A program made the position numbers and the translations under genes. From the NCBI GenBank assembly GCA_045535205.1, contig JAZSLF010000141.1, positions 1 through 59,503 of the forward strand: 59,503 nt of DNA, in the 5' to 3' direction. The notes below the pieces were generated by a model. That model was not told the origin of the DNA. It did not search any database and was given only the letters and a program-made list of their open reading frames with translations. This document shows, piece after piece, positions 1,369-13,157 of the stretch. Numbering within the stretch: the first letter of the stretch is position 1; every line of letters starts with the position of its first letter. The stretch comes from Eubacteriales bacterium (GTDB lineage Bacteria > Bacillota > Clostridia > Oscillospirales > CAG-272).

Positions 1369-2505
1369 TTACTGAATAATGGGCAGGATTATGATCTGAC
1401 CCACAAATATTGAATCAGGATCGCTGATACCGTTGAGTGCAAGAATGATATTAACGGTTCCATGATAATCTATTCCGTAATCGTTGCAGATTTTAAGCAA
1501 GGAGTCGCCTGCCTCAACTGTATGAGAAACAAAGCCGACAAGCTTATCCTCTCCTTCAACGGAAACGTCACCTATAAGGTTTTTGACCTGCTGTATTACT
1601 TCTTCATGTGCTTCAATTGACGCTTCATTGTTTTCGACACGGCCAACGAGCCCCTCTACGTTTGTGCCCGAAGTATCAACGGGCTCATCGGTAAGAAGAC
1701 TCTGCAGATCTTTAATCGTACTGCTTTGCTCGTCAATGATCTCCGCTTGTTCCTGAAGCTTGAGGATCGCAGCCTGCTGCTGTTTCATTTGCTCGTTATA
1801 TTTTTTGTTTATATTGATAACGAAGCCGCTGAGAACAATGGTTGCAACACATAGGAACGACACAAGTGCCGTAATCAGCCTGCCGGGTGCCGCAGCGGTG
1901 CTTTTTTTAGGAGAATCAACTCTCTTTTGCTCGATCTTTATGACCTTGCCAACCTCATCGTATATATAATAACCTTTAAGCTTTTCGGTTTTTCCGTTTT
2001 TCCATTGGAAAAAGCCTCTGAGATTTTGAATGGGGTCAATGACGTAGGCCACCTGAAAAGGCATATTGAAAAAGTTGTCCTGAATGAAAAGGTCGTAGTT
2101 TGAAAGAAAAATGCCGTAGTTGGGATGAGTATGCTGCCAGCCGATGATCTTTTTATTGGGATAAAGAATATCGTGCTGTTTATGTACGTAGTCCCACGTT
2201 TCATGAGTGAAGGTCAACGTAGAAGCAGAAGCGTCAGTATATTTTGCTTCAATATAATCGGAAATAACAACGTGTGTTTTTCCAAGCTGCTCACAATAAT
2301 CGCCTATCAGAATAGTACCCAGCTCTTTTGATGTGTTTGAAACGGCATATTTTTCAAGAGCTCTGTATACGTCTTGCTTAATATAAACCTTCACGTCATC
2401 GGGTTCAAACTCACCAAAAGAAAGAAAATTGAGAGGTAACTGTACGCTTCCTCCTTCAGTTTTTGTTTCTTCGACTGAAAATTCTATATCAAAATCTTTT
2501 TCCAC
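1369..2505 (-). CDS. JAB/MPN (JAMM) metallopeptidase - TM - coiled coil - LysM protein (JAB-B)
   Basis: The JAMM motif HTHPNYGIFLSNYD fits HxHx7Sx2D. One hydrophobic helix is present (LITALVSFLCVATIVLSGFVI), followed by a Q/E-rich coiled coil. The C-terminus is LysM-like (HTVEAGDSLLKICNDYGIDY...NGISDPDSIFVGQIIILP). I prefer the GTG start at 2505, which is preceded by AAAGGAGAG directly after the upstream stop. The ORF-track start at 2556 would overlap the upstream gene by 37 nt. Confidence 0.85.
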   Translation of the reverse strand: MEKDFDIEFSVEETKTEGGSVQLPLNFLSFGEFEPDDVKVYIKQDVYRALEKYAVSNTSKELGTILIGDYCEQLGKTHVVISDYIEAKYTDASASTLTFTHETWDYVHKQHDILYPNKKIIGWQHTHPNYGIFLSNYDLFIQDNFFNMPFQVAYVIDPIQNLRGFFQWKNGKTEKLKGYYIYDEVGKVIKIEQKRVDSPKKSTAAAPGRLITALVSFLCVATIVLSGFVININKKYNEQMKQQQAAILKLQEQAEIIDEQSSTIKDLQSLLTDEPVDTSGTNVEGLVGRVENNEASIEAHEEVIQQVKNLIGDVSVEGEDKLVGFVSHTVEAGDSLLKICNDYGIDYHGTVNIILALNGISDPDSIFVGQIIILPIIQ

Positions 2506-2519
2506 CTGTATCTCTCCTT

Positions 2520-3437
2520 TTAGATATTCGAAATAATCGTTATCGTCACAATCCAAGCAACGATAGCAATAACAAGTGCGACAGTATTAACTCCGCCGTT
2601 TTTCTGAACGTACTGAGTTCTGTAGGGCTCACTCATTGTCTTTAGCTGATTTGCGTGTTTTTCAAGCCACTTCATGTATATATAGTTGCTGAATATACCC
2701 GCAACGATATATCCGCCCAAAGCCAACACCGATAAGAATGGAACACCGATCAAAGAAATTAAAAATAAACCGCCGAACATCCCGCATCCGTAGCCATACA
2801 TTTTACGGTATATAAACCAGAAGGGTGTAACCAAAAATGCCGCTGTGTTCCACGTGTTCTTTTTATTTTGCGATTTCATCTCTTGAAATTTTGATACATA
2901 ATAGTCCTTGTTAGCACCGATCAACACCTCTACGTCGGGATCAATGACGGTACTCGCTTGTTGACTGTAAGCATTATGATCGTATGAGCTCGTATTCTGC
3001 TGATACTGCGTTGTATTCTGCTGATACTGCGGAGTGTATGCCGACTGAGAGGTGCCGTTTTGCTGAGTATAAGCGTAAGGATCCGTATTAGCAGGGTTTG
3101 ATTGAGTACAAACGGGAGCAGCCGAGGGCTCTTTCAACCGATTGCCGCATCGACTGCAGAACGCAGAATCACCCGAGTACTTTGTACCGCATTTGCTGCA
3201 ATAAATTACTGAAGCCGCAGAATCATCCTCGTAGATAAGCTCCGTGGCGGTAACAGTATCGGAAACACCGCCCGCAGCCTTTATGGTTCCGGTACAGCCG
3301 AAGGTGGTACAGCCTTGATTTTCTACCCAACAGTCCTTATGATGAGGCATATCACAGTTGCTGCATACAACAATGTCATCATTTTCTTTAAATTCAGTTT
3401 TGCAAAAAGGACATATCTTTCCAAAATATATGCTCAT
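2520..3437 (-). CDS. RING-like (prokaryotic RING/treble-clef) + zinc-ribbon + multi-TM protein (RING-1)
   Basis: The N-terminus CPFCKTEFKENDDIVVCSNCDMPHHKDCWVENQGCTTFGC has C-x2-C...C-x2-C..HH..C...C..C cross-brace spacing. A zinc ribbon CSKCG...FCSRCG follows, then a Q/Y/T-rich linker. The C-terminus has 3 hydrophobic helices and looks DUF2628-like (FWFIYRKMYGYG). Confidence 0.8.
   Translation of the reverse strand: MSIYFGKICPFCKTEFKENDDIVVCSNCDMPHHKDCWVENQGCTTFGCTGTIKAAGGVSDTVTATELIYEDDSAASVIYCSKCGTKYSGDSAFCSRCGNRLKEPSAAPVCTQSNPANTDPYAYTQQNGTSQSAYTPQYQQNTTQYQQNTSSYDHNAYSQQASTVIDPDVEVLIGANKDYYVSKFQEMKSQNKKNTWNTAAFLVTPFWFIYRKMYGYGCGMFGGLFLISLIGVPFLSVLALGGYIVAGIFSNYIYMKWLEKHANQLKTMSEPYRTQYVQKNGGVNTVALVIAIVAWIVTITIISNI
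2992..3031. repeat. Tandem 21-bp repeat x2 inside the RING-1 linker
   Basis: GTATTCTGCTGATACTGCG occurs at 2992-3010 and 3013-3031. It encodes the QYQQNT duplication in the low-complexity linker. Confidence 0.85.
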
Positions 3438-3438
3438 T

Positions 3439-4578
3439 TCAGTTATCCTCGCCGTTTGTGTTATCGGAAGGCTCTCCGTTATCGAAATCGCCGTTGTTTA
3501 CCTTGTTATCATCTTTCTGATTGCTGTCGGCATCGTCAGCATTACCGTCTGAAGCGCCGTCAATATTTGAATTACCGCTTTCATCTGCGTTTTGATCCGT
3601 ATTGCCGGTGTTTGTGTTAGTTCCCTGATTGGTGACTTCAGCTGTAGGATCTCCGTTTACGTTTTCGCCGTCGTTTGCCGCTTCGTTTGAAGAAGCATCG
3701 ATCTCGCCGAGGCTTTCGTCAGTTGATTCTTGGAGCTCTTTGAGGGAGTTTTCAGCCTGTTCAAGCTCATTTTCAAGCGCTGAGACCTTGGTCTGCAGAT
3801 TTGTCACCCTTTTATCAAGATTAGTGAAATTCTGATTAGCGGCTTCGATAAAAAGCTTTTGCTGCTGTTCAAGATTTTCGATCTTATTATGCTGACTTAT
3901 ATTCAAAACGGATAAAACGACTATCGAAACAACAAGAATTGCAATAATAAAGCTCTTTAAATTCAGCGAAGATTCGCTTGTTACCGAGCCGGCGTCGTCA
4001 GCCTCAACCTCTCCTTTGATCTTAGCACCCGTTTTATCAAACTTGAAAAAGCCTTTGCATCTTTCTATTTTACCGTTTATCCAGAAGTAAAAGCCTTCTA
4101 TATTTTGAATGGGGTCAACAACGTAAGCTATCTGATATTCTTCTTTGAAGAAGTTTTCCTGAATAAACTTATCGTATTCGGAAAGAAAGATGCCGAAGTT
4201 GGGGTGAGTATGGATCCAACCGACGATCTTCTGACCGGGATACTTTCTATCCATTTCCTTATGAACAAAGTCCCACGTTTCATGGGTGAATTTCAATGTG
4301 GTGGGAGTTGCTTCACAATATTTAGCTTCGATAAAACCCTTTATTATAATATTGGTTTTACCAAATTCTTCGATAACACTGCCGATAAGCATACCGCCGC
4401 TTTCGTTCGTGGTCTTATTTTGAGTAAACTTATGTATCTCGTTATACACCGGCTGAGATATATAAATATTTTTATTCTCCTCAACACGCTCTCCTATCGA
4501 CAGAATATTCTGAGGAAGAACGTTTTCGTTTGTCGGTACATTTTTTACACTCTTTTTTGAACTTTTTTTCTTTGCCAT
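3439..4578 (-). CDS. JAB/MPN (JAMM) metallopeptidase - TM - coiled coil - acidic low-complexity tail (JAB-A)
   Basis: The JAMM motif is HTHPNFGIFLSEYD. It is a close paralog of JAB-B (FTHETWDFVHKE.../FTHETWDYVHKQ...). A TM helix (FIIAILVVSIVVLSVLNI), a coiled coil and a D/N/G/E-rich tail follow. The ATG at 4578 (MAKKKSS) has a GGAG 8 nt upstream. The ORF-track GTG at 4587 overlaps the protease stop. Confidence 0.85.
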   Translation of the reverse strand: MAKKKSSKKSVKNVPTNENVLPQNILSIGERVEENKNIYISQPVYNEIHKFTQNKTTNESGGMLIGSVIEEFGKTNIIIKGFIEAKYCEATPTTLKFTHETWDFVHKEMDRKYPGQKIVGWIHTHPNFGIFLSEYDKFIQENFFKEEYQIAYVVDPIQNIEGFYFWINGKIERCKGFFKFDKTGAKIKGEVEADDAGSVTSESSLNLKSFIIAILVVSIVVLSVLNISQHNKIENLEQQQKLFIEAANQNFTNLDKRVTNLQTKVSALENELEQAENSLKELQESTDESLGEIDASSNEAANDGENVNGDPTAEVTNQGTNTNTGNTDQNADESGNSNIDGASDGNADDADSNQKDDNKVNNGDFDNGEPSDNTNGEDN

Positions 4579-4583
4579 ATTTA

Positions 4584-5507
4584 TCACTCCAATATATCAA
4601 TATCAAAATCCGTTCTTTCTCTCGGATCATATTTCAAGTTCAAATTTTTTCTTTTTTGAAACACCAGCATTATTATCAGAATAACGTTTATTGTTACAGA
4701 TCCGCACAATGCAACGATAAGGATCAGTTCCATTAACGGCATGGATTTCAAAACGTTCCAAACGTCTGTATAGGTTTCGTTGACGTCTTTGTCAAAAAAC
4801 TCGGCGGTATCTTCCGTTTCCGACTCGTACTCCTCCCCTGCACCGTCACGTGATAATACTTCGCAAACGTTACCGTTGGCATCGAGCTCTATGCCGAGTG
4901 ACTGAACGAACTCGCACACCGCTGTCATCGGTATAGCAAGACCTATACCCTCGCTGTCAGACATTTTAAGAGTATTTATGCCGATAACGTTACCCTCGTC
5001 ATTAAGAAGCGGACCGCCGCTGTTACCCTCGTTGACTGCGGCATCTGTCTGAATGTATTTGTATTTACCCACTTCTCTTTCCTTGGCGGAAATAACACCC
5101 TTTGTAAGAGTATATGCCATGCTGTTGGGAGCACCGACGGCATATACGTCGTCACCTGTATTCAGAGCGTCGGGATCCGCAACGGTGAGTGTTGGGAAAG
5201 AAGCATCCGCAACACCCAGAACAGCTATATCCTTATCGGCGTCATAACCGACCGTATAGGCAGGAAAGCTTTCTCCCGAATAAGCCGTCAGCACAACGTT
5301 ATCAACATCGTCTATCACGTGTGCATTCGTAACAACACAGTTTTCTCCAATGGCAAAGCCGCTGCCGAGTGAGAGTCCTGACGTTACGATAAAAACAGAA
5401 CTGTATTTTTCTTCCGCATTAAAACCGATTGCGCTTGAAGACAGCGGAAGGGCGAATAATACCGCCACCGCACAGATTATAGATATTACTGCTCTTTGCA
5501 GCTTCAC
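4584..5507 (-). CDS. Secreted trypsin-like (S1/HtrA-type core, no PDZ) serine protease with C-terminal TM anchor
   Basis: A signal peptide is present (MKLQRAVISIICAVAVLFALPLSSSA). The triad contexts are VTNAHVI, DKDIAVL and GNSGGPLL. The C-terminal helix is LMELILIVALCGSVTINVILIIMLVF. The start codon is GTG. Confidence 0.85.
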   Translation of the reverse strand: MKLQRAVISIICAVAVLFALPLSSSAIGFNAEEKYSSVFIVTSGLSLGSGFAIGENCVVTNAHVIDDVDNVVLTAYSGESFPAYTVGYDADKDIAVLGVADASFPTLTVADPDALNTGDDVYAVGAPNSMAYTLTKGVISAKEREVGKYKYIQTDAAVNEGNSGGPLLNDEGNVIGINTLKMSDSEGIGLAIPMTAVCEFVQSLGIELDANGNVCEVLSRDGAGEEYESETEDTAEFFDKDVNETYTDVWNVLKSMPLMELILIVALCGSVTINVILIIMLVFQKRKNLNLKYDPRERTDFDIDILE

Positions 5508-5538: not shown

Positions 5539-7437
5539 TTATTTTGTATTGAAAACCAGCACGGAGTTACCGATAGCAATAGCATCTCCCTGACGGAGAA
5601 TGTGTCTTGCGGTTCTCATGCCGTTAACAACGGTTCCCATCGGTGTTCCGCAGTCGTGGAGCACGTATTTGCTTCCTTCAAGTACAATGTCACAGTGGTG
5701 AGGTCCGACAAGCTTGTCCTTGAAAAGAACGATGGTGTTCTTGCCGTTATTACCGATACTTGTAGTTCCGGCAAATACAAGGTATTCCTTGCCTTCAAAC
5801 TCACCTCTGATAACCTTGAGCCAAGCCTGTTTTGCAAACTGTTCAAGAAGTCCTACACCAAGACCGATCAAGAGTCCCATGATGACGATCGCAACACCTC
5901 TGGCCACTACGTCGTTAGGAATAATGTCGCATATATAGTTGAACAGGAAGCCGCCGAGGAAGCCGCCTGCCAAGCCGCCGAGAGCACAGTAAAGCATTCT
6001 TTTCTTTTCGGGCTTAATAAGACCTACGGCAACACCGATGCCGAGACCCATGATCGCCCAGCCGAGACCACGGATAAACGCAGCCGCAAAATCGGAGGGA
6101 TCGTCGCCGAGCATCGACGCATACATCCATTGTGCCAAATATCCGCTGATAAAACCAAGACCGAGCGAGACACCCGCACCTATTGCGGCATATTTGATCG
6201 CCTTTTCCTTTGAACCGTAGAAGATACCTTCACCTAATCCGAGGAACAGTCCGATAAAGAGTGCAAGTACGCCGGACCACAACGCAGTGCTTAAACGTGT
6301 AACGTTAGCCAAAGCATCTTTCAGAGCCGAGTCACTCTCATGATATTCATATTGATATGAATTATAGAGAGCTTCGCTTGATCTGTCATCATAATCTGAA
6401 TAATCATCCAGATAACCCTTTGCTTCCGCTGTTGCATATTCGGTATACCAAAGCTCAAAAGCTGAGGAATTATCGGGATCATATTTATTCTTCTTGCAGA
6501 AATCTTCGTAAATATCGTATGCTTTATCAAAGGCTTTGTCTGCCTTGTTTTCATAGTCATAATAATCAGCCAGATAAGACTTGCCCATAAGATTTGCTAT
6601 AAATACGCTATTCACGTCACTTCCGCCGGTCATTTCGGTTATTGCAAAGCCAAGAATAGCGCCGATAAGCGCCCAAAGCAAACCTTTTACGAGAATGGTC
6701 TTAAAGTTGATCTTTCCGCCCTTGACCGTACCGCCGCTTGATACTGTCTGCATTCTTTGAGCAGTAGGAACGAACTCAATTCCCGCAAGTTCCTCGGCAG
6801 TTATTTCAAAATCGTTCTCCTCGGGCTTGTTTTCCGTTATAACAGGAGCAGGGGCATTAATTACTGACTCTGTACTGACAAGGGTCTCAGCCGCTTCTGC
6901 AGGCTGTTCTTCGGCGATAACTGCACCGTCGTCATCAAACAGATCTATTTCAACGGTATCCTTTGCAGAAGCATAGTCAGCAATATAAAGCTCTGCGTTG
7001 CCTACGGGGAAAAGATGCTTATTTTCCATAGCCCACTGTGCCGCTTCTGCAGAAAGAGGACTGTAGGAGTTCCATGACTTATACTGGATCATATCGCCGA
7101 TATTAATGATAATATCGCTCAAGGATTCACCTGCACCCCAAATATCACCGATACAGATCTGTCCGTCTCTGAAGTTCGGATGCCAGATAGGTGTAAGTAT
7201 TTTGCAGATCGGTTTATATCTCGGATATTCAGCATGAAGCGTGATCTCAACCTCATGCCGAGCAAGTGTTTCTATTCTTCCGTCGGGCAAAAGATAAATA
7301 CCGTTTACGAAATATGTAACGTGATATTTTTCGGGCGGTTCCTCTCCGATCGGAGTAACAATGATATTTCTATGACCTGTAAAATCTTTTCTGACCTGTT
7401 CCCAGTCAGAAGCAAGACGTCTCATTCTTGCTGTCAT
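5539..7437 (-). CDS. UBC-like E2 domain - 6 TM helices - FHA domain fusion protein
   Basis: The N-terminus is RRLASDWEQVRKDF...YPRYKPICKILTPIWHPNFRDGQICIGDIW. HPN at aa 86-88 and Cys95 match E2 active-site geometry. Six Gly-rich hydrophobic helices span about aa 245-525. The C-terminus is FHA-like (GNNGKNTIVLFKDKLVGPHHCDIVLEGSKYVLHDCGTPMGTVVNG...LRQGDAIAIGNSVLVF). The start ATG is 1 nt after the E1 stop, with RBS GAGGAGGG. Confidence 0.85.
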   Translation of the reverse strand: MTARMRRLASDWEQVRKDFTGHRNIIVTPIGEEPPEKYHVTYFVNGIYLLPDGRIETLARHEVEITLHAEYPRYKPICKILTPIWHPNFRDGQICIGDIWGAGESLSDIIINIGDMIQYKSWNSYSPLSAEAAQWAMENKHLFPVGNAELYIADYASAKDTVEIDLFDDDGAVIAEEQPAEAAETLVSTESVINAPAPVITENKPEENDFEITAEELAGIEFVPTAQRMQTVSSGGTVKGGKINFKTILVKGLLWALIGAILGFAITEMTGGSDVNSVFIANLMGKSYLADYYDYENKADKAFDKAYDIYEDFCKKNKYDPDNSSAFELWYTEYATAEAKGYLDDYSDYDDRSSEALYNSYQYEYHESDSALKDALANVTRLSTALWSGVLALFIGLFLGLGEGIFYGSKEKAIKYAAIGAGVSLGLGFISGYLAQWMYASMLGDDPSDFAAAFIRGLGWAIMGLGIGVAVGLIKPEKKRMLYCALGGLAGGFLGGFLFNYICDIIPNDVVARGVAIVIMGLLIGLGVGLLEQFAKQAWLKVIRGEFEGKEYLVFAGTTSIGNNGKNTIVLFKDKLVGPHHCDIVLEGSKYVLHDCGTPMGTVVNGMRTARHILRQGDAIAIGNSVLVFNTK

Positions 7438-7438
7438 T

Positions 7439-8629
7439 TCAATCCCTCCTCAATTCTTCAAATACTTCCGGCTCATCACCGGCAAATTCATAATAGATCG
7501 TATTCATTCCAACACGAACTCCGACAATGTGCAACAAAGGAATACCGATCTCAAACAGCGTTTTATCAAGAAAATCCTCAGTTCCGTTTACGGAGTGGAA
7601 GCTGTCAAAGGACATCTGATTTCCGCATTTTTCACAAGTGAGCATTTCGCCTTTAAGCTTATGCACAGGCATATAAAGCTCTTTATGTTCGCCGCAAGTA
7701 CATTTTCCGACAGCGGCAATATCTCTGTCAAACTCAACGACAGCCTTCTCGCCCAGCTCCGAACGGCCGACGCTGAGAAGCTCGGCAAGGGTCATGGTTC
7801 TGACAGACCAATCCTTTTCCACTATGTTAGTATAGGTGTCGTGACTCATGCAGTCTGCCTTCTCCTGATACTCTACAACGTAGGAATCGTGGGTCAGACC
7901 GTTAAATACGTAGCCCTTTCCTGCTAACGTAGGAAGCTCTCTGTCACTGTGAAGCAGCTTCAGCATCTCCTGCACCTGAATACCCGCAATAACAGATGAC
8001 GATGTGGGAGTTGTCGGTATCTTGCCCTCTGCCATCTGTTCATGTGTAAGCAGAGCGCAGGATTTTCTCTTGTTAATCAATCTCCAGTCTGTTTCCGTCA
8101 TGGTGCATTCATAGCACGCACCCTGACCGGGTATAAACACACGGGCAAATCCGTTTAAGGCTTCAATTGCTCCGTCTATCCAAGGCTTGTCCACCTTATA
8201 GCAGGACTGATTGATCGCAAGACGAGCCTCTCTGTTGTCAAGTCCGCCGAGAACTACGCTCATTCTGCGAAACACACCCAAACCGACATCGTCAATTATG
8301 TTTGCAATAAAAGCCTTAGCCTTGACGTCGGGATTGATCTCCATCGCCCTTTCAGATGCCACCTCGGCTTTGTATCTGCCTACGTCTTTTGCACGATATA
8401 AGACAGAACGTGTGAGGTTGGTATTTTCAATACCGTCCATATCAAATATAAGAATTTTTCCTATTCCAAGCAAGGCAAGGTTTTTTATAAGCTCATTACC
8501 GATCGCTCCTGCGCCCACGACCATGACCGTGGCATTGTTCAGGCGATCCTGATCCCACCACGGTATAAGTCTAAGCCTACTGTATCGGTCTTCTTCAAAA
8601 TCAGAATTGTTTAATTCAATGTTTTCCAT
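7439..8629 (-). CDS. E1-like ubiquitin-activating enzyme (ThiF/MoeB/UBA superfamily)
   Basis: The nucleotide loop is VMVVGAGAIGNE. Other superfamily motifs are FDMDGIENTNLTRS and GLDNREAR. The CYEC ... CEKCG zinc site is present. The candidate catalytic Cys sits in NKRKSCALL. An extra C-terminal domain of about 120 aa is in the UFD position. Confidence 0.85.
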   Translation of the reverse strand: MENIELNNSDFEEDRYSRLRLIPWWDQDRLNNATVMVVGAGAIGNELIKNLALLGIGKILIFDMDGIENTNLTRSVLYRAKDVGRYKAEVASERAMEINPDVKAKAFIANIIDDVGLGVFRRMSVVLGGLDNREARLAINQSCYKVDKPWIDGAIEALNGFARVFIPGQGACYECTMTETDWRLINKRKSCALLTHEQMAEGKIPTTPTSSSVIAGIQVQEMLKLLHSDRELPTLAGKGYVFNGLTHDSYVVEYQEKADCMSHDTYTNIVEKDWSVRTMTLAELLSVGRSELGEKAVVEFDRDIAAVGKCTCGEHKELYMPVHKLKGEMLTCEKCGNQMSFDSFHSVNGTEDFLDKTLFEIGIPLLHIVGVRVGMNTIYYEFAGDEPEVFEELRRD

Positions 8630-8640
8630 CGCATCACCTA

Positions 8641-9372
8641 TTATTTGGCATTAGACAAGCTTCTCATTTTTACGATAAAATAGAATAAGAAGATAAGACC
8701 GATTGCGATAAGTAAATTTCCAAAGCCTGCAGCTACGATCTCAGCTAAAGCTCTGACGTTGTTGGCAGTCTGAGCCGCAGCATTCTGAATACCCGTATAT
8801 GCATCGCCGCCGTACGAACTTGCAGATTCATAAGCACCCGTATACTTTGAAAGAGTCGAAAAGCCTAAAATCATTGACACAATACTTGCGAGCATTCCGA
8901 ATATGCAGGGAATTCTGCCTTTGATTTTTTTCTTGGCTTTTTGGGGACTTTCGTCGGGAGCAACTGTGTATTTAGGGCCTGTGCTGTACGAGGGCGCCGC
9001 ATTATAATTGGGAGCGCTTGTCTGAGGAGCTGTCAGAGACGCACCGCACTTGCTGCAGAATAATTCTCCGTCATTTTCCGCATTTCCGCACTGTGAACAA
9101 ACTGCGCCTGCGGTGATCTCGGGCTGAAGACGAAGAACGTCGCCGTCTTTGATACCCGCTTCGCCGAGCGTCTGAGCTTCAAGAAGCTGACGGCCCGTTA
9201 CCTTATGTATGAATTTATAGCTGATGGGGTTGCCGTCGGGGCCAACTGAGGGAAGCTTGATCTTCTCAACAAGCTTTACCATGATAATCCCGCATTTAAT
9301 ATCGTCAGGCAAACCAACCTTCTGCTCTTTATTACCTGTTGCATCTACGATAACTACATTAACTTTTCCCAT
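8641..9372 (-). CDS. Ubiquitin-like beta-grasp domain - zinc ribbon - 2 TM protein (Ubl precursor candidate)
   Basis: Aa 1-89, KVNVVIVDATGNKEQKVGLPDD...TLGEAGIKDGDVLRLQPEITAG, shows a Ub/YukD-like pattern and ends in LRL...AG (Gly89 = 9106-9108). CSQCG...FCSKCG follows. Two hydrophobic helices are IPCIFGMLASIVSMILGF and LAEIVAAGFGNLLIAIGLIFLFYFIV. RBS AGGAGAAAC. Confidence 0.75.
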   Translation of the reverse strand: MGKVNVVIVDATGNKEQKVGLPDDIKCGIIMVKLVEKIKLPSVGPDGNPISYKFIHKVTGRQLLEAQTLGEAGIKDGDVLRLQPEITAGAVCSQCGNAENDGELFCSKCGASLTAPQTSAPNYNAAPSYSTGPKYTVAPDESPQKAKKKIKGRIPCIFGMLASIVSMILGFSTLSKYTGAYESASSYGGDAYTGIQNAAAQTANNVRALAEIVAAGFGNLLIAIGLIFLFYFIVKMRSLSNAK

Positions 9373-9525: not shown

Positions 9526-9864
9526 TTAAATTTTTTGTCCGCACTTTGAACAAAAAGCCTGACCGCTTCGCAGCGCCGCACCGCATCTAGAGCAGAATTT
9601 CGGTGCTGAGTTCTTAGGACTGCCGCATTTTGCGCAGAATAACTCTCCTGCACCAAAAACGTAACCGCATCTGACACAAACGTCTGAAGTGCCACTTTCA
9701 GCTTCATGATCTCGTTCCAGACAGCCAAAGGTCGTACACCCGTCATTTTCACGCCAACAGTCTATATGATGCGGAATATTACAAGCGGGACATACTTTGA
9801 TTTCTTCATCCTCTTTTATCGGGGTTTTACAAAAAGGACAAATCTTTCCAACATAATTTTCCAT
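9526..9864 (-). CDS. Soluble RING-like (prokaryotic RING/treble-clef) protein with two zinc ribbons (RING-2)
   Basis: CPFCKTPIKEDEEIKVCPACNIPHHIDCWRENDGCTTFGC is a paralog of the RING-1 N-terminus. CVRCG..FCAKCG and FCSRCG..FCSKCG follow. No TM segment. RBS GGAGG. Confidence 0.8.
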   Translation of the reverse strand: MENYVGKICPFCKTPIKEDEEIKVCPACNIPHHIDCWRENDGCTTFGCLERDHEAESGTSDVCVRCGYVFGAGELFCAKCGSPKNSAPKFCSRCGAALRSGQAFCSKCGQKI

Positions 9865-9875
9865 ATAAACCTCCG

Positions 9876-10916
9876 TTAGTTGATTACGGGAAGACCGCTG
9901 ACAATGCTTTCCACGCTGTCACTTGCATCTGAAACCAACGTAGCCATCTCGCTTATCGTATCAAGCGCATCGTTTACACTTTTAGAAGAATAATATCCCG
10001 TACCGTAATAAAGATCACCCAATTCTGTTTCTATAGTTGAAAGTGCAGAGATATATTTTACACACAATTCGTCACCGGTAGAGACTTCCTTTGCGGCAGC
10101 TACGGCATTTTCAGCACTCGTATGTGCGTATCCTGCGTACAGCTTTGTAACGTAATAGGATGATGACTTTGCAGCACTTGTTACATTTTCAATACACTCC
10201 GAACAATCGCTCATCGAATTGAGAACGCATCTACTGACACCGTTGTACTTTACATAGTCGGAAAGCTCTAATACTTGCGATATGTAACGCCTGACGTTTG
10301 TACCATCAGAGGAGTTTATTCTCAACAATCCACCGATAACGTCGTACATTTCATACTTCTCAAGAAGCTCCGTATTAACAAGCCAACCCGACAGCTCGAC
10401 ATACTGGTTATCGGAAACCTCGTCTACGAACGCATCTATGATCTTGTCTCTGAATAACATCTGCCCGATGGGAGTCAACGAATTATAATTCGATTCAATG
10501 ATCGTATATGACGGATCTGAAGATTTTATTTCATCAATTATGCTTTCTGCCATTCCGTTTAAATGAACATATCCGCCGATGGCAGCTGCCGCAAGAATTC
10601 CGACAATTATTAATATTACGACAAGTGCCTTTGATTTTGACTTTTTCTTCTTTTCTTGTTGTACGATGTTTTGATTGAATTGTGAAATAGCATCAGACAC
10701 CTGAGGAGAGTTCGGCTGCGGTGAATAGGTCTCTCCCTTCTTGTGACCGCAATTAGTACAAAACACCTTGTTTTCCGTCAATTCAGTTCCGCAAAATGCG
10801 CATACAACGATGCCATTTCCGTTGCTTTCGGGTGCTGACTGATTATCAGCTGTCTGAGATACAGCATCTGACACCTCAGAGGTTTGATCCATTACCAAAT
10901 TTTTTTCGTCATTCAT
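9876..10916 (-). CDS. Zinc-ribbon - TM - extracytoplasmic domain protein (unknown function)
   Basis: The N-terminal ribbon is CAFCGTEL..FCTNCGHK. The TM helix is ALVVILIIVGILAAAAIGGYV. I do not recognise the ectodomain of about 220 aa. RBS AAGGAGA. Confidence 0.7.
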   Translation of the reverse strand: MNDEKNLVMDQTSEVSDAVSQTADNQSAPESNGNGIVVCAFCGTELTENKVFCTNCGHKKGETYSPQPNSPQVSDAISQFNQNIVQQEKKKKSKSKALVVILIIVGILAAAAIGGYVHLNGMAESIIDEIKSSDPSYTIIESNYNSLTPIGQMLFRDKIIDAFVDEVSDNQYVELSGWLVNTELLEKYEMYDVIGGLLRINSSDGTNVRRYISQVLELSDYVKYNGVSRCVLNSMSDCSECIENVTSAAKSSSYYVTKLYAGYAHTSAENAVAAAKEVSTGDELCVKYISALSTIETELGDLYYGTGYYSSKSVNDALDTISEMATLVSDASDSVESIVSGLPVIN

Positions 10917-10933: not shown

Positions 10934-11599
10934 TTATCCTTGAGGCAAACACGTGCCGCAAGGTTCATATTCTCCTGTTTCAAATTGTTCTACGGTTAAT
11001 CTGCTTGTATTACTTTTGTTTTTTACGTGAATACAGTCTGCCTGATGATACTTGTTACCGGTCTCGGTAATCACGTAATCCCCATAGTATTCCTTATCCC
11101 TTGTAAGCCATCCGACTCCGATCAGCCCAGCAATAAGAATCAGGCACACTGCGCTCAGCCAAACTTTATTTTTATTAACGAAAAACGCTCCTTTGTCAAT
11201 TATTGACGGATTAGTCAAGCTGTAGACAAACTCGTTTGACTCAGCCTCTTGCTGAACGTCACGTCCCAGATAGGTGTTTTCCTCGATATGTCCGCAAAAA
11301 ATATGACCTTCCTCATGAAGCAAGACATTAAACTTTTCATCTGCCGACAGATCCTCATGCACAAAAACAAGTCTGTTTTTAGCGTCTGCATAAGTGAAAC
11401 CCTTTCTCTCCGAAACGAGACGGTCTAAGTTTAACCGTTCAATAATCAACGCCACATCTTCATCGTTAAATATGGAGTTGAATTCAATTATCGTATAACC
11501 TTGAGATGCGATAATTCTTTTCAGTCTTTCCGCAGTCGGACAGATAAGACCGTACTTTTTTCTGAAAGCTTTAGCGGCTTTTTTTCCCGATACACTCAT
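10934..11599 (-). CDS. ImmA/IrrE-family zinc metallopeptidase with TM helix and C-terminal H/C metal-binding motif
   Basis: HEXXH lies in LLHEEGHIFCGH. The TM helix is VWLSAVCLILIAGLIGVGWL. The C-terminal motif is YHQADCIHV...YEPCGTC. The start overlaps the XRE stop (ATGA). Confidence 0.75.
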   Translation of the reverse strand: MSVSGKKAAKAFRKKYGLICPTAERLKRIIASQGYTIIEFNSIFNDEDVALIIERLNLDRLVSERKGFTYADAKNRLVFVHEDLSADEKFNVLLHEEGHIFCGHIEENTYLGRDVQQEAESNEFVYSLTNPSIIDKGAFFVNKNKVWLSAVCLILIAGLIGVGWLTRDKEYYGDYVITETGNKYHQADCIHVKNKSNTSRLTVEQFETGEYEPCGTCLPQG

Positions 11600-12207
11600 A
11601 ATTTACCGTTCCCGCTTCCCTTAACATTTTTCAGCGCCCGCTTCACAGCCTCGTCATCCTTGGTTATACCCTTGCTAAACGATCTGCCGTCGAAAGACTT
11701 TATCACAGCCTCACCCGGAAGATTACTGCACCGTGCATACTCCACCATTATCAACGTGCGTATTGCGTGAATGGCTTGTTCGTCGAGAATATCTTTTATG
11801 TTTTCGATTGAAATTCCGACAAGCCGTTCAAAGCTCGTAAAGTCTTCGCTTTCGTTTATACGATCTACCAGCTCTGAGGGAAATGCCGATATGGCTCTGA
11901 TCATTTTGTGTGTCGATTGATTGTAATCGAAAAAAAAGATCAAGGAAAGATACGTATTCCACGACATTTTTCTGTCTTTACGCTCGATCCAACCATAGTT
12001 TTGTCTTGAAATACCTATTATCTTTGCGAGTGCTTCTTGAGATATGTCAGCCTTCGCTCTCAACATCGGTAATTCGTCTGTAAGAATGTCTATGTATCTG
12101 TCTTTTTCTTCGGGTGTGATCTGCCATCTTTCTTTACTGTCCAAGATTTTCATCTCCTTCCCCGTTTTTTCGTAGAGTATTTTACTATACGAAAATGTTT
12201 GTTTCAT
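11596..12207 (-). CDS. XRE-family helix-turn-helix regulator
   Basis: The HTH is ISQEALAKIIGISRQNYGWIERKDRKMSW. The ATG at 12207 overlaps the recombinase stop (ATGA) and reads through IR-L. An alternative start is ATG 12153 (MKILDSKERW), preceded by GGGGAAGGAG. Confidence 0.8.
   Translation of the reverse strand: MKQTFSYSKILYEKTGKEMKILDSKERWQITPEEKDRYIDILTDELPMLRAKADISQEALAKIIGISRQNYGWIERKDRKMSWNTYLSLIFFFDYNQSTHKMIRAISAFPSELVDRINESEDFTSFERLVGISIENIKDILDEQAIHAIRTLIMVEYARCSNLPGEAVIKSFDGRSFSKGITKDDEAVKRALKNVKGSGNGKL
12167..12201. repeat. IR-L: 35-bp perfect inverted repeat flanking the recombinase gene (candidate recombination core site)
   Basis: TTTTCGTAGAGTATTTTACTATACGAAAATGTTTG is the exact reverse complement of 13301-13335. 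It contains an internal dyad, TTTTCGTAGAGTA / TACTATACGAAAA (13-nt arms, 1 mismatch), like the paired arms of tyrosine-recombinase core sites. Confidence 0.9.
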
Positions 12208-13157
12208 TCGTAATTCAGTTTTTTCAGATTTTGCCGTTTCATCTCAAAAGAGGAATGTACGTATCTGTTAAGAGTTATATTTACGTTTGAATGTCCGAGC
12301 GTTTCACTTAATGTTTTTACGTCAACACCAACCTCTACACACCGTGTTGCAAACGTATGCCGCAAGGTGTGAAAGCTAACGTTTTCTATTGAAAGCTTTT
12401 GCATTATCTTATTAAATCTGTTTTCCATTGTTCTCGGTTCGATAAATCTGTCGGCATCTCCCGTTAAAATATATGCTCCCTTTCTGTATTCTGCTGCCGC
12501 CAGTCTCTCCATTATAAAATCCTGTATAGGAATTTCTCTCACAGAGCTTTTGCTTTTGGGCGCTGTTATTGAAATATATGTTTTGTTGTTATCGTTGTCC
12601 CGCTTATGCTGAAGTCTCTGCATTGTTTTTGTTATGGTTACTTTTTTCGTCTCCATATCAAAATCCTCTATATTCAGAGCACACAGTTCCCCTATTCTTA
12701 TACCCGTATAGAAGGCAATAAGTATTCCAAGCTCAGTAAAACCCGTTTGCGTCATCAGATATTGATTTACAATAGCTTGTTCTTTGTGCGAAAGCACCTT
12801 TAATTTAACGTCAGGCTGTTTTACGGATAACAAGGTTGGGTTACAAGAAAGAGAATATCCGAGTGTTTCTGCATAATGTAGAATTGCTTTTATTATGATC
12901 GCTATGTCGCAAACGGTTTTTTGTGACAGTCCTCCGCTGTAATCGAGCCGTCCGTCTGTGGAAAAACCGATTATTGTTTCTTCTAATTTTAATAACGTTA
13001 AATCTTCTATCAGCTCGTTGCCAAGCTTTGCTTCAATATGATTTTTTAACAAATTATAATAATGAATATAGGTTGATCTTTTGGTGGTTGTTTCTTTCTT
13101 TTTGATCCATAGCTCAGCTACGTTTCTGAAATATATTTGATTATTTGAAAATACCAT
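12204..13157 (-). CDS. Tyrosine site-specific recombinase (phage-integrase family, short form without arm-binding domain)
   Basis: An N-terminal SAM-like core-binding region is present. The catalytic contexts are TGIRIGELCAL (Arg), HTLRHTFAT (HxxR) and GHSNVNITLNRYVH (His/Tyr). 317 aa. RBS AGGAGG. Confidence 0.9.
   Translation of the reverse strand: MVFSNNQIYFRNVAELWIKKKETTTKRSTYIHYYNLLKNHIEAKLGNELIEDLTLLKLEETIIGFSTDGRLDYSGGLSQKTVCDIAIIIKAILHYAETLGYSLSCNPTLLSVKQPDVKLKVLSHKEQAIVNQYLMTQTGFTELGILIAFYTGIRIGELCALNIEDFDMETKKVTITKTMQRLQHKRDNDNNKTYISITAPKSKSSVREIPIQDFIMERLAAAEYRKGAYILTGDADRFIEPRTMENRFNKIMQKLSIENVSFHTLRHTFATRCVEVGVDVKTLSETLGHSNVNITLNRYVHSSFEMKRQNLKKLNYE

Follow-up and report, generated by a model that had tools for sequence, protein, structure and literature searches.

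The DNA analysed here, a stretch of 59,503 nucleotides from an Eubacteriales bacterium, a gut member of the Clostridia (hereafter the window), carries on its minus strand an operon whose genes encode, in this order, a RING protein, a ubiquitin-like protein (Ubl), an E1, an E2-TM-FHA protein, an S1 protease, a JAB protein, a RING-TM protein and a JAB-LysM protein; all of the operon coordinates given below refer to that strand. Ahead of these, the first gene of the operon (9876..10916) encodes a zinc ribbon-TM-ectodomain protein with a weak match to Zn_Ribbon_1, and it is also found 5' of the Ubl gene in several orthologous loci. A gene for an M78/IrrE-like peptidase (10934-11599; Pfam) lies upstream of the operon. 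A search for attachment sites of the island turned up a 51-nt perfect repeat of the tRNA-Pro 3' end, which lies just 271 nt away from the tRNA itself, and none beside the integrase.

The E1-like adenylating enzyme (7439..8629; Pfam ThiF, E=1.3e-54) starts 11 nt past the Ubl stop codon. Its nearest solved relatives are eukaryotic Uba1 (2.5e-31), followed by ThiF/MoeB (1e-19 or weaker), and the GxGxxG motif, R74, D131 and C191 are conserved. In the next protein (5539..7437; Pfam UQ_con, FHA and Yop-YscD_cpl), an E2 (UBC) domain is fused to a membrane region, and an FHA domain forms the C-terminus; the membrane region, predicted from the sequence, is hydrophobic and Gly-rich. The E2 residues H86-P87-N88...C95 are conserved in 71 orthologues, and the PDB matches of this domain are eukaryotic E2s.

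Both JAB proteins have an N-terminal JAB domain followed by a TM helix and a coiled coil. JAB-A (3439..4587; Pfam JAB and Prok-JAB) ends in an acidic tail and conserves E62, H126, H128, S136 and D139, while JAB-B (1369..2556; Pfam JAB and LysM) ends in LysM and conserves E78, H142, H144, S152 and D155; the nearest solved relatives of the latter are Rpn11, AMSH, CSN5 and Caldiarchaeum Rpn11. Two Prok-RING_1 proteins are encoded, one soluble, with a double zinc ribbon and a putative E3 (9526..9864; PF14446, E=9e-12), the other with a zinc ribbon and a membrane region (2520..3437; PF14446, E=4.5e-14, Zn_Ribbon_1, DUF2628). The trypsin-like S1 protease (4584..5507; Trypsin_2, E=1.9e-31) carries a signal peptide and a C-terminal TM anchor.

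Architecture and fold of the probable Ubl precursor

The Ubl gene (8641-9372) is an ATG-started open reading frame of 243 aa with an AGGAG ribosome-binding site about 8 nt 5' of its ATG, and the window contains no other Ubl gene. A preliminary description of this DNA had read its product as a beta-grasp domain followed by a zinc ribbon and two TM segments, an architecture that Pfam, hydropathy and AlphaFold2 all bear out. The beta-grasp domain occupies aa 1-89 (9106..9372), ends in LRLQPEITAG and has a mass of 9507 Da as the predicted mature modifier; the reverse complement of 9106-9372 gives aa 1-89 exactly, which places the Gly89 codon at 9106-9108, as had been proposed. Residues 7-82 match Pfam YukD (PF08817; E=1.2e-10, 42.5 bits against a cut-off of 27), the family to which YukD/EsaB and the N-terminal domain of EccD also belong. 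A role in type VII secretion, suggested by the YukD name, was ruled out by the neighbours, which are E1, E2, RING and JAB genes; no match to FtsK/EssC was found in the ten largest open reading frames outside the operon within the window, all of which are ordinary chromosomal genes.

The AlphaFold2 model of aa 1-95 is a beta-grasp (pLDDT 85) of the order strand-strand-helix-strand-strand, in which residues 87-89 form a coil beyond the last strand. Its best PDB matches in a Foldseek search are ubiquitin variants, Caldiarchaeum ubiquitin, SUMO1 and BilA, with a probability of 1.0 and TM-scores of 0.67-0.70. The fold expected for aa 1-89 is thus the one obtained, and the nearest folds are those of conjugatable Ubls, including ubiquitin and BilA. 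A PDB sequence search with aa 1-95 returned nothing significant (best E=0.39), and the structure search alone was informative.

Past Gly89, 154 further residues are encoded. The candidate processing site, Gly89/Ala90 (9103..9108), is indicated by conservation and by orthologues that end at the Gly. It is followed by a four-Cys zinc ribbon, aa 92-110 (9043..9099), supported by Pfam and by conservation: the Zn_Ribbon_1 match over aa 92-113 scores 23.4 bits, slightly below the cut-off of 25, and the ligands C92, C95, C106 and C109 are invariant among homologues, while the remaining positions vary; the pLDDT of the ribbon is about 84. A low-complexity linker, aa 111-152 (8917..9042), shows a mean identity of 16% over aa 114-150 and a pLDDT of 41-55 (below 50 at aa 117-131), and ends in a Lys/Arg-rich stretch directly ahead of the first TM helix, aa 153-175 (8848..8916). 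A turn and a juxtamembrane helix with a near-invariant SYGGDAYTGIQNAAAQTANN follow, aa 176-207 (8752..8847), then the second TM helix, aa 208-236, which together with a short basic C-terminus and the stop codon spans 8641..8751. Hydropathy places the hydrophobic segments at about 153-176 and 208-236, and AlphaFold2 models the membrane part as a confident helical hairpin (helices 153-175 and 191-242, pLDDT 87-97, with values above 90 in the second). According to the positive-inside rule, the turn and juxtamembrane helix of aa 176-207 are predicted to be extracytoplasmic.

Conservation of the Ubl and variation of its tail

A scan of species-representative genomes with a 7-sequence alignment identified at least 580 Ubl-operon loci, and tails were compared in the best-scoring 80 of these, so that the proportions describe those 80 loci rather than a random sample. 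They derive mostly from Clostridia, many of them from gut or rumen samples, and gene order is kept across them. The Ubl domain is 84-100% identical in these 80 operons and Gly89 is invariant; median identity of the Ubl is 96% at the amino-acid level versus 78% at the nucleotide level, and the protein is thus conserved in a ubiquitin-like manner. Conversely, the tails vary: 13 of the 80 proteins end exactly at Gly89, 49 carry 1-8 further residues and 18 have long tails of 79-318 aa, which are unrelated to one another and comprise zinc ribbon-TM and lipoprotein-like types. The tail types are interleaved on a neighbour-joining tree of the E1, where the neighbours of the window protein have no tail (L015), a 116-aa tail (L002) and an 8-aa tail (L020); this interleaving indicates that tails have been gained and lost repeatedly. 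In the wider family, Gly occupies the position of Gly89 in 118 of 124 representatives, and 21 of the 124 end there; among distant relatives, a HINT autoprocessing domain stands right after the equivalent Gly in two (P0224 and P0261, with a G|C junction) and an E2 in another (P0243).

The fused architecture itself is found in more than 100 protein clusters, some with more than 100 member sequences. The 120 best homologues keep the 15 residues DGDVLRLQPEITAGA essentially unchanged, with a different residue in place of Ala90 in 2 of them. Across 105 full-length homologues, mean identity is 0.96 over aa 1-89, 1.00 at Gly89 and 0.98 at Ala90; the junction, whose conservation the preliminary description had made a point of, is therefore preserved in the fused homologues (Gly89 in 100%, Ala90 in 98%). 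Past Ala90, identity falls to 0.49 in the zinc ribbon, where it is chiefly the Cys ligands that are kept, and to 0.16 in the linker; within the tail of full-length homologues, neither the zinc ligands nor the GGDAYTGIQNAA motif varies.

The tail had been described as a membrane anchor, and the two-helix hairpin agrees with this; an anchor-only role does not hold, however, since the hairpin is a 2-TM module conserved in its own right. Indeed, the tail belongs to a 2-TM family that is widespread and in which the GGDAYTGIQNAAAQTANN motif is invariant; elsewhere, members of this family are standalone or fused to the RING protein of the operon. The SYGGDAYTGIQNAAAQTANN stretch has a per-residue conservation of 0.83-1.00 and recurs in standalone, zinc ribbon-fused and RING-fused relatives; in five loci (L006, L059, L065, L066 and L070) the RING protein matches the soluble RING protein of the window at its N-terminus and the Ubl tail at its C-terminus. 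On this comparative evidence the tail is an independently conserved module, more than an anchor, and through the fusion the Ubl becomes connected with small zinc-ribbon membrane proteins whose family is widespread but uncharacterised.

Proposed processing at Gly89

Since Gly89 is invariant while the tails vary and their types are interleaved, Gly89 appears to be the working C-terminus, and the precursor would have to be cut at Gly89|Ala90; likewise, as the window holds no other Ubl gene, this Ubl must be the substrate of the E1. Taken together, the sequences make it probable that the protein is the precursor of a conjugatable Ubl modifier, which is freed at Gly89 by a JAB protein and then conjugated. 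The likeliest cutters would be the two membrane-anchored JAB proteins, acting through their JAB domains, whose catalytic residues are intact; we infer a cytoplasmic location for these domains because they lie N-terminal to a single TM helix, with LysM at the opposite end. JAB-A and JAB-B are thus candidate processing enzymes and deconjugases. JAB-B is present in 44 of 46 complete loci and is retained more widely than JAB-A; both genes are kept in each of the 12 long-tail loci whose downstream sequence is complete, and in five short-tail loci JAB-LysM is the sole JAB, so that it appears to be sufficient alone. The S1 protease, also put forward earlier as a possible cutter at Gly89, was rejected as a processing enzyme: its signal peptide and C-terminal anchor place the protease domain, by prediction from the sequence, outside the cell, and it could therefore not reach a cytoplasmic Gly89.

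The following course of events is proposed. The C-terminal helical hairpin would insert the 243-aa protein into the membrane, with the Ubl, the zinc ribbon and the linker remaining in the cytoplasm, and the Gly89-Ala90 bond would be cut by the cytoplasmic JAB domain of one or both JAB proteins, freeing a 9.5-kDa Ubl with the end ...ITAG. The free Gly89 carboxylate would then be adenylated by the E1 and the Ubl handed to Cys95 of the membrane-embedded E2-FHA protein; the E2 and the Prok-RING_1 proteins would attach it to membrane-located targets, and the JAB proteins may also undo the modification. A 16-kDa zinc ribbon-2TM remnant would stay in the membrane, in a 1:1 ratio with the Ubl, and may have a function of its own. 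However, the zinc ribbon begins two residues past the proposed scissile bond, so that access of a protease could suffer, and the conserved tail motif would be compatible with a function as an intact fusion, too.

Among the other explanations, one holds that the Ubl is never released and that the intact fusion acts as a membrane adaptor, which would offer its beta-grasp for docking, like the YukD-like domain of EccD or EsaB in type VII secretion, and would recruit or regulate the E1, the E2 or the JAB proteins. It accords with the Pfam match, which is to YukD, and with the account of Iyer et al. 2006, where, citing van den Ent and Lowe, the founding YukD proteins are reported as unconjugated, YukD is found alongside type VII secretion genes and a multi-pass (12-TM) membrane domain is joined to the YukD-like domains of actinobacteria. 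A tail that is itself conserved and confidently folded by AlphaFold2 also speaks for it. The actinobacterial 12-TM fusions are the EccD proteins, which are not known to be cleaved; an uncleaved, membrane-tethered beta-grasp thus has a precedent. To our knowledge, however, YukD has neither a conserved C-terminal Gly nor E1 or E2 neighbours, whereas the Gly of the window Ubl is invariant, also across all fused forms, and its neighbours are E1, E2, RING and JAB genes. Moreover, there are orthologous operons whose Ubl stops at Gly89 or runs on for just 1-8 residues, and the anchored state can therefore not be essential. With the fold nearest to conjugated Ubls, an intact E1 and E2 but no other Ubl gene to serve them, and no type VII secretion genes among the operon genes and the ten largest other open reading frames of the window, a permanent adaptor is distinctly unlikely.

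A cut at or near Gly89 by an agent other than a JAB protein, such as a housekeeping protease, the upstream M78-type metallopeptidase or self-cleavage, is even less probable. The M78/IrrE-like gene does accompany the operon in many loci, and distant relatives have HINT autoprocessing at the equivalent Gly; nevertheless, no HINT or other autoprocessing domain was found by Pfam in the window tail, and the M78 gene is absent from many loci with tailed Ubls. The JAB genes, on the contrary, are near-universal and conserve their active sites, and JAB-family deubiquitinases do such processing in the Bil and Caldiarchaeum systems. That the fusion is a functionless accident or an annotation or assembly artefact, for instance through a lost stop codon, is hardly credible: tails are evolutionarily labile, and short ones often just overlap the E1 start, but more than 100 clusters share the full-length architecture with invariant zinc ligands and GGDAYTGIQNAA, and the 2-TM module is under selection in standalone relatives as well, so that tail conservation across homologues already largely refutes this explanation.

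Finally, the fusion might serve as a regulated, membrane-tethered store of inactive modifier, zymogen-like, with release by JAB gated by an envelope signal, a possibility that is considered rather doubtful. Sensing would in this case involve the JAB ectodomains with their LysM and coiled-coil parts, the S1 protease outside the cell and the invariant motif on the outer side of the tail, GGDAYTGIQNAA; an envelope event would trigger JAB cleavage and free the Ubl beside the membrane E2 and RING proteins, and the zinc ribbon-2TM remnant would become a membrane subunit of the E3, as in the RING-fused loci. If true, this would amount to a signal-gated Ubl supply, possibly for phage defence or envelope stress.

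The JAB-dependent release of a modifier, the favoured reading, would make the fused precursor a natural, ready substrate for the JAB peptidases of the operon. The precursor also sets the predicted mature C-terminus at ...ITAG, and conjugation should leave a tryptic LQPEITAG remnant on lysine as its proteomic mark.

Relation to known conjugation systems

Among bacteria, the soluble Bil, Bub and type II CBASS systems have been shown by experiment to carry out ubiquitin-type conjugation. The system in the window would differ from them as a cascade embedded in the membrane, whose E1, E2 (HPN...C), RING and Rpn11-like parts are eukaryote-like, and no experimental study of a RING/Ubl/E1/E2-FHA/JAB system was found in the literature searched. 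In 2011, Burroughs, Iyer and Aravind reportedly predicted prokaryotic RING-E1-E2-JAB systems, in which YukD-like Ubls may be conjugated, and the Pfam family Prok-RING_1 was built on that work. The window operon has the defining parts of this type, with two Prok-RING_1 proteins, an E1, an E2, two JAB proteins and a YukD-like Ubl, all recognised by Pfam; in the literature searched, which lay outside the 2011 study, no description of the C-terminal fusion of the Ubl, of the tail-less orthologues or of the 2-TM module was found.

Membership in Bil, Bub (6E) or type II CBASS was considered and rejected, as no PADLOC or NCBIfam model matches the Ubl or the RING proteins. PADLOC matched the E1 to E1-E2/BilD (BilD 2.6e-7) and the JAB proteins to JAB models of CBASS, in both cases weakly and in part; NCBIfam has no family for JAB-A either, and JAB-B matches in its LysM region only. 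Bil nevertheless resembles the window system in several respects: the operon has separate E1, E2, Ubl and JAB genes, residues are encoded past the reactive Gly, the junction is G|A, and BilA is among the structural matches of the window Ubl (8tyx_A, 8tyz_B). BilC, a JAB-family deubiquitinase, pre-processes BilA at Gly97|Ala98, and a BilA-GFP fusion is likewise cleaved by it (PMC10557695, Chambers et al.). Differently from the window system, the Bil tail is of one residue, all of the proteins are soluble, and RING, FHA, S1 and LysM components are absent.

A second parallel comes from the archaeon Caldiarchaeum subterraneum, whose operon encodes Ub, E1, E2, a small RING protein and Rpn11 (PMC5654768, PMC6043591), the last of which processes the ubiquitin precursor (PMC6043591). 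Operon-encoded Ub, E1, E2, RING and JAB are thus shared with the window, and Caldiarchaeum ubiquitin is among the best structural matches of the window Ubl, at 26-27% identity; the system is archaeal, however, and has no membrane-protein fusion, FHA, S1 or LysM. As far as known, it is soluble.

In precursor design, the window gene resembles the eukaryotic fusions Ub-eL40/UBA52 and Ub-eS31/RPS27A. In these, an N-terminal modifier runs directly into a small zinc-binding protein that has a function of its own, a deubiquitinase exposes the terminal Gly and the two products arise 1:1; the window gene has the same layout, and a function of the partner, exposure of the Gly and a 1:1 yield are predicted for it. 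The analogy drawn in the preliminary description therefore stands for the layout and fails for the tails, which have no sequence relationship; in a PDB sequence search, one weak and non-significant match (E=1.3), to a Ub-L40 fusion, puts ...ITAG in register with its ...GG. The partner is here a 2-TM membrane protein and the modifier ends in AG instead of GG; the enzymes that process eukaryotic ubiquitin precursors are UCH or USP cysteine proteases, whereas a JAB metalloprotease is predicted for the window system. Genes that encode a Ubl fused to a small zinc-binding protein have thus arisen in bacteria as well as in eukaryotes.

Domain architecture and genomic context of the Ubl fusion

The Ubl fusion gene (8641-9372, minus strand) is the third of nine genes in a minus-strand operon; its ORF begins with an ATG, preceded at about 8 nt by an AGGAG motif, and encodes 243 aa. 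A YukD-type beta-grasp spans aa 7-82 (Pfam, E=1.2e-10, exceeding the curated cut-off), followed by a zinc ribbon at aa 92-113, whose Pfam score is slightly under the cut-off and whose C92, C95, C106 and C109 are invariant among homologues, and by two stretches that hydropathy marks as membrane-spanning (about 153-176 and 208-236). Thus, every element of the architecture proposed in the preliminary description is real, and its placement of Gly89 agrees with translation: aa 1-89 correspond to the reverse complement of 9106-9372, with the Gly89 codon at 9106-9108.

AlphaFold2 (30 aligned sequences) models aa 1-95 as a beta-grasp with mean pLDDT 85, in the order strand, strand, helix, strand, strand, with T87-A88-G89 as coil past the last strand. 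Foldseek comparison of this model with the PDB gives 563 matches at E<=0.001, headed by ubiquitin variants, Caldiarchaeum ubiquitin (26-27% identity), SUMO1 and the bacterial Ubl BilA; a structural comparison with ubiquitin and BilA had been put forward as a check. The best matches of the predicted fold are modifiers that undergo conjugation. In the full-length model the zinc ribbon has pLDDT about 84, the linker is disordered (aa 117-131 below 50) and helices 153-175 and 191-242 both reach 87-97. Lys/Arg-rich stretches lie before the first and after the second membrane segment; therefore, by the positive-inside rule, everything N-terminal to the first segment (Ubl, zinc ribbon and linker) would be cytoplasmic.

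The other operon genes, all on the minus strand, encode a zinc ribbon-TM protein (9876-10916, gene 1) and a Prok-RING_1 protein with a double zinc ribbon (9526-9864, gene 2), then an E1 (7439-8629; ThiF, E=1.3e-54), an E2-membrane region-FHA fusion (5539-7437; UQ_con), a trypsin-like S1 protease (4584-5507), JAB-A, a JAB-TM-coiled coil protein (3439-4587), a Prok-RING_1-zinc ribbon-TM protein (2520-3437) and JAB-B, which is JAB-TM-coiled coil-LysM (1369-2556). Searching the window with an HMM of the Ubl family reveals no other Ubl gene. The residues that at least 95% of orthologues share are G39xGxxG44, R74, D131, C172xxC175 and C191 in E1; H86-P87-N88 and C95 in E2, equivalent to the eukaryotic HPN...C signature; E62, H126, H128, S136 and D139 in JAB-A; and E78, H142, H144, S152 and D155 in JAB-B. 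By sequence, the nearest solved relative of E1 is eukaryotic Uba1 (2.5e-31), better than ThiF and MoeB; those of E2 are eukaryotic E2s, and those of JAB-B are Rpn11, AMSH, CSN5 and Caldiarchaeum Rpn11. Beyond the HPN...C active site, the E2 (5539-7437) extends through a long membrane region rich in Gly to a phosphothreonine-binding FHA domain at its C-terminus, an arrangement not known from characterised E2s.

The region upstream of the operon (10934-13157) encodes an M78/IrrE-like peptidase and a helix-turn-helix-like protein and contains an ORF labelled integrase-like from a reading of its sequence. The helix-turn-helix and peptidase pair precedes the operon in the window, as it does in 15 of 46 loci whose upstream sequence suffices, and an integrase-like ORF is likewise upstream in some of the best 80 orthologous loci (L001-L080). 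The pair is reminiscent of the helix-turn-helix and metallopeptidase regulators of phage-defence operons and suggests a mobile, inducible island. At the other end, past the last gene, the operon is adjoined by a tRNA-Pro (CGG) gene (766-841); its 3' end and downstream sequence (823-873) form a perfect 51-nt repeat with 1094-1144, 271 nt off, and a second, partial copy of the tRNA is present at 1035-1051. These repeats look like attachment-site remnants; no copy was found near the integrase-like ORF. The ten largest ORFs elsewhere in the window are ordinary chromosomal genes, one of them dockerin-bearing.

Conservation of the Ubl and variation of its tail

A full-length search returned 532 proteins; the best 120 retain DGDVLRLQPEITAGA almost unchanged, with another residue for Ala90 in two, and vary freely downstream of it. 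Mean identity to the window protein is 0.96 for aa 1-89, 1.00 for Gly89 and 0.98 for Ala90, and falls to 0.49 in the zinc ribbon, chiefly the Cys ligands, and to 0.16 in the linker; the A-G|A junction, whose alignment among orthologues had been put forward as a check, is conserved. Scanning a single genome of each species for [LV]RLQPEITA gave at least 580 orthologous loci, the best 80 of which are nearly all from Clostridia (Oscillospiraceae, Acutalibacteraceae, Lachnospiraceae, Christensenellaceae), a few bearing Synergistaceae or Roseiflexaceae labels. All 80 have the same operon in the same gene order, to the extent of each contig. Two contigs with a Clostridia-type operon, L004 (CAVGWF010000065.1, 'Escherichia coli isolate ... 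cleanbin'; Ubl identity 98%) and L075 (CAYJJT010000041.1, 'uncultured Muribaculaceae'; 85%), probably carry labels due to binning errors, not those of true hosts.

Across these 80 loci, which were picked by similarity to the Ubl so that high Ubl identity is favoured, no other protein of the operon is as conserved as the Ubl, which has a median identity of 96% to the window, compared with 87% for the E2 UBC domain, 77% for E1, 75% for the JAB domains and 57% for the S1 protease. At the nucleotide level the Ubl has a median identity of only 78%, conserved residues have the same codon in only about 44% of cases, and in L003 and L005 a 100% identical protein is encoded by DNA of 81-83% identity. 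High protein identity with diverged DNA and codons indicates long-standing, ubiquitin-like purifying selection and not recent transfer.

The tail, i.e. everything encoded past Gly89, behaves differently. The gene ends exactly at this Gly in 13 of the 80 loci, continues for 1-8 residues in 49 (e.g. A, AM, GVK, KQNG, GHYGE) and bears a tail of 79-318 aa in 18. Among the long tails, some combine a zinc ribbon with one or two TM helices, and others have a signal sequence of lipoprotein type that contains a lipobox. On a neighbour-joining E1 tree the loci of all three classes intermingle, and the nearest neighbours of the window are L015 (tail 0), L002 (116 residues) and L020 (8 residues). In the wider family, Gly occupies the position of Gly89 in 118 of 124 representatives (50% identity), 21 of which end there. 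These comparisons argue that the same machinery works with a Ubl ending at Gly89 and that anything encoded beyond is interchangeable, as would be expected of a removable extension. A Ubl permanently tethered and never released is hard to reconcile with interchangeable tails on a constant Ubl, some genes for which end at Gly89. The reading of the fusion as a precursor, from which the Ubl would be freed after Gly89, thus has strong comparative evidence on its side, cleavage and conjugation being what we infer from it.

In most short-tail loci the 1-8 extra Ubl codons overlap the start of the E1 gene by 1-23 nt, E1 starts being set at the first possible start codon and possibly too far upstream; because of this overlap, many short tails may be by-products of translational coupling. 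In L057, L059, L065, L066 and L070 the Ubl genes, 338-502 aa as called, continue from ITAG|A into an apparent lipoprotein signal peptide with a lipobox (e.g. ...LSLFACGKS) and then a long region that is probably exported; cutting of such tails by signal peptidase II, if it occurs, would leave the Ubl attached to a signal peptide embedded in the membrane.

Candidate processing enzyme and proposed fate of the tail

E1 chemistry needs a free C-terminal carboxylate, so that 59 of the 80 orthologous Ubl genes, and all the long-tailed ones, would require processing. Both JAB proteins have an N-terminal JAB domain, a single TM helix and then a coiled coil, followed in JAB-B by a peptidoglycan-binding LysM; since the JAB domains precede the TM helix, with coiled coil and LysM beyond it, they would lie on the cytoplasmic face, beside the tethered junction. 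Of the long-tail loci, 12 have complete sequence downstream, and each of these has both genes. JAB-B is more likely the core enzyme, because JAB-LysM is the only JAB gene in five short-tail loci and is absent from only two of 46 complete loci. The S1 protease, previously considered a possible cutter at Gly89, is excluded by its signal peptide and C-terminal anchor, with which it is predicted to face outward; its protease domain (4584-5507) is predicted extracellular, as are the coiled-coil and LysM ectodomains of the two JABs. Similar processing is known elsewhere: the JAB-family DUB BilC pre-processes BilA at Gly97|Ala98 and also cuts a BilA-GFP fusion (PMC10557695), and in Caldiarchaeum Rpn11 processes the ubiquitin precursor (PMC6043591).

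Among distant relatives in the wider family, P0224 and P0261 have a HINT autoprocessing domain directly after the conserved Gly (G|C junction), P0261 also having a CHAT (protease) domain, and in P0243 an E2 domain follows this Gly directly. The HINT and E2 fusions are further signs that the Gly is a reactive or processed end. In P0189 a JAB-LysM protein is joined to the Ubl at ITAK, not ITAG, and in P0205 a zinc ribbon and DUF4190 directly follow the Ubl.

The tail is an independent conserved module and not a passive anchor. SYGGDAYTGIQNAAAQTANN, between its two TM segments, is nearly invariant, and YGGDAYTGIQNAAAQTANN (8752-8847, aa 176-207) is the hallmark of a widespread family of small 2-TM proteins, in which a zinc ribbon at the N-terminus is common. 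Outside Ubl operons the zinc ribbon-2TM module occurs as small standalone proteins (392 matches), which, where examined, form tandem arrays (3-5 paralogues) amid ordinary chromosomal genes in Clostridia, distant from any Ubl operon (L081 6857-8429; L084 7493-10026); these proteins are possible partners or targets of the Ubl system. A Ser/Thr kinase gene (L081 5027-6388) adjoins one such array. In L006, L059, L065, L066 and L070 the module is the C-terminal half of the RING protein directly 5' of the Ubl gene, which has no tail in L006 and one of the lipoprotein type in L059, L065, L066 and L070. L071 encodes the module separately, as a standalone gene of 147 aa adjoining a tail-less Ubl. The upstream RING protein of the window has 112 aa and lacks the module, which here has, in effect, moved from the RING protein to the Ubl. 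Cleavage would leave a 16-kDa remnant, a normal member of the zinc ribbon-2TM family, made one-to-one with the Ubl. The analogy with ubiquitin-ribosomal protein fusions, drawn in the preliminary description, holds for the layout and goes no further.

Comparison with known systems

Membership in Bil, Bub or CBASS was rejected; PADLOC and NCBIfam have no models for the Ubl or RING proteins, and no YukD-like or membrane-anchored Ubl is described in the Bil and Bub literature examined. Type VII secretion YukD was also rejected: the sequence matches, but the defining gene context does not, no type VII secretion genes being found in the operon or among the ten largest remaining ORFs of the window. 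The operon fits instead the RING-E1-E2-JAB systems with YukD-like Ubls of Burroughs, Iyer and Aravind 2011, who predicted them and reportedly proposed conjugation of these Ubls; the Pfam Prok-RING_1 family derives from the same work. No description of a Ubl-zinc ribbon-2TM fusion was found in the literature searched. Ubl precursors processed by a cognate DUB are already known; new here is the tethering of such a precursor to the membrane by the zinc-ribbon 2-TM protein fused to it, within an uncharacterised bacterial cascade that is itself membrane-embedded and for which we infer cleavage, the protease responsible, conjugation and the targets of the Ubl.
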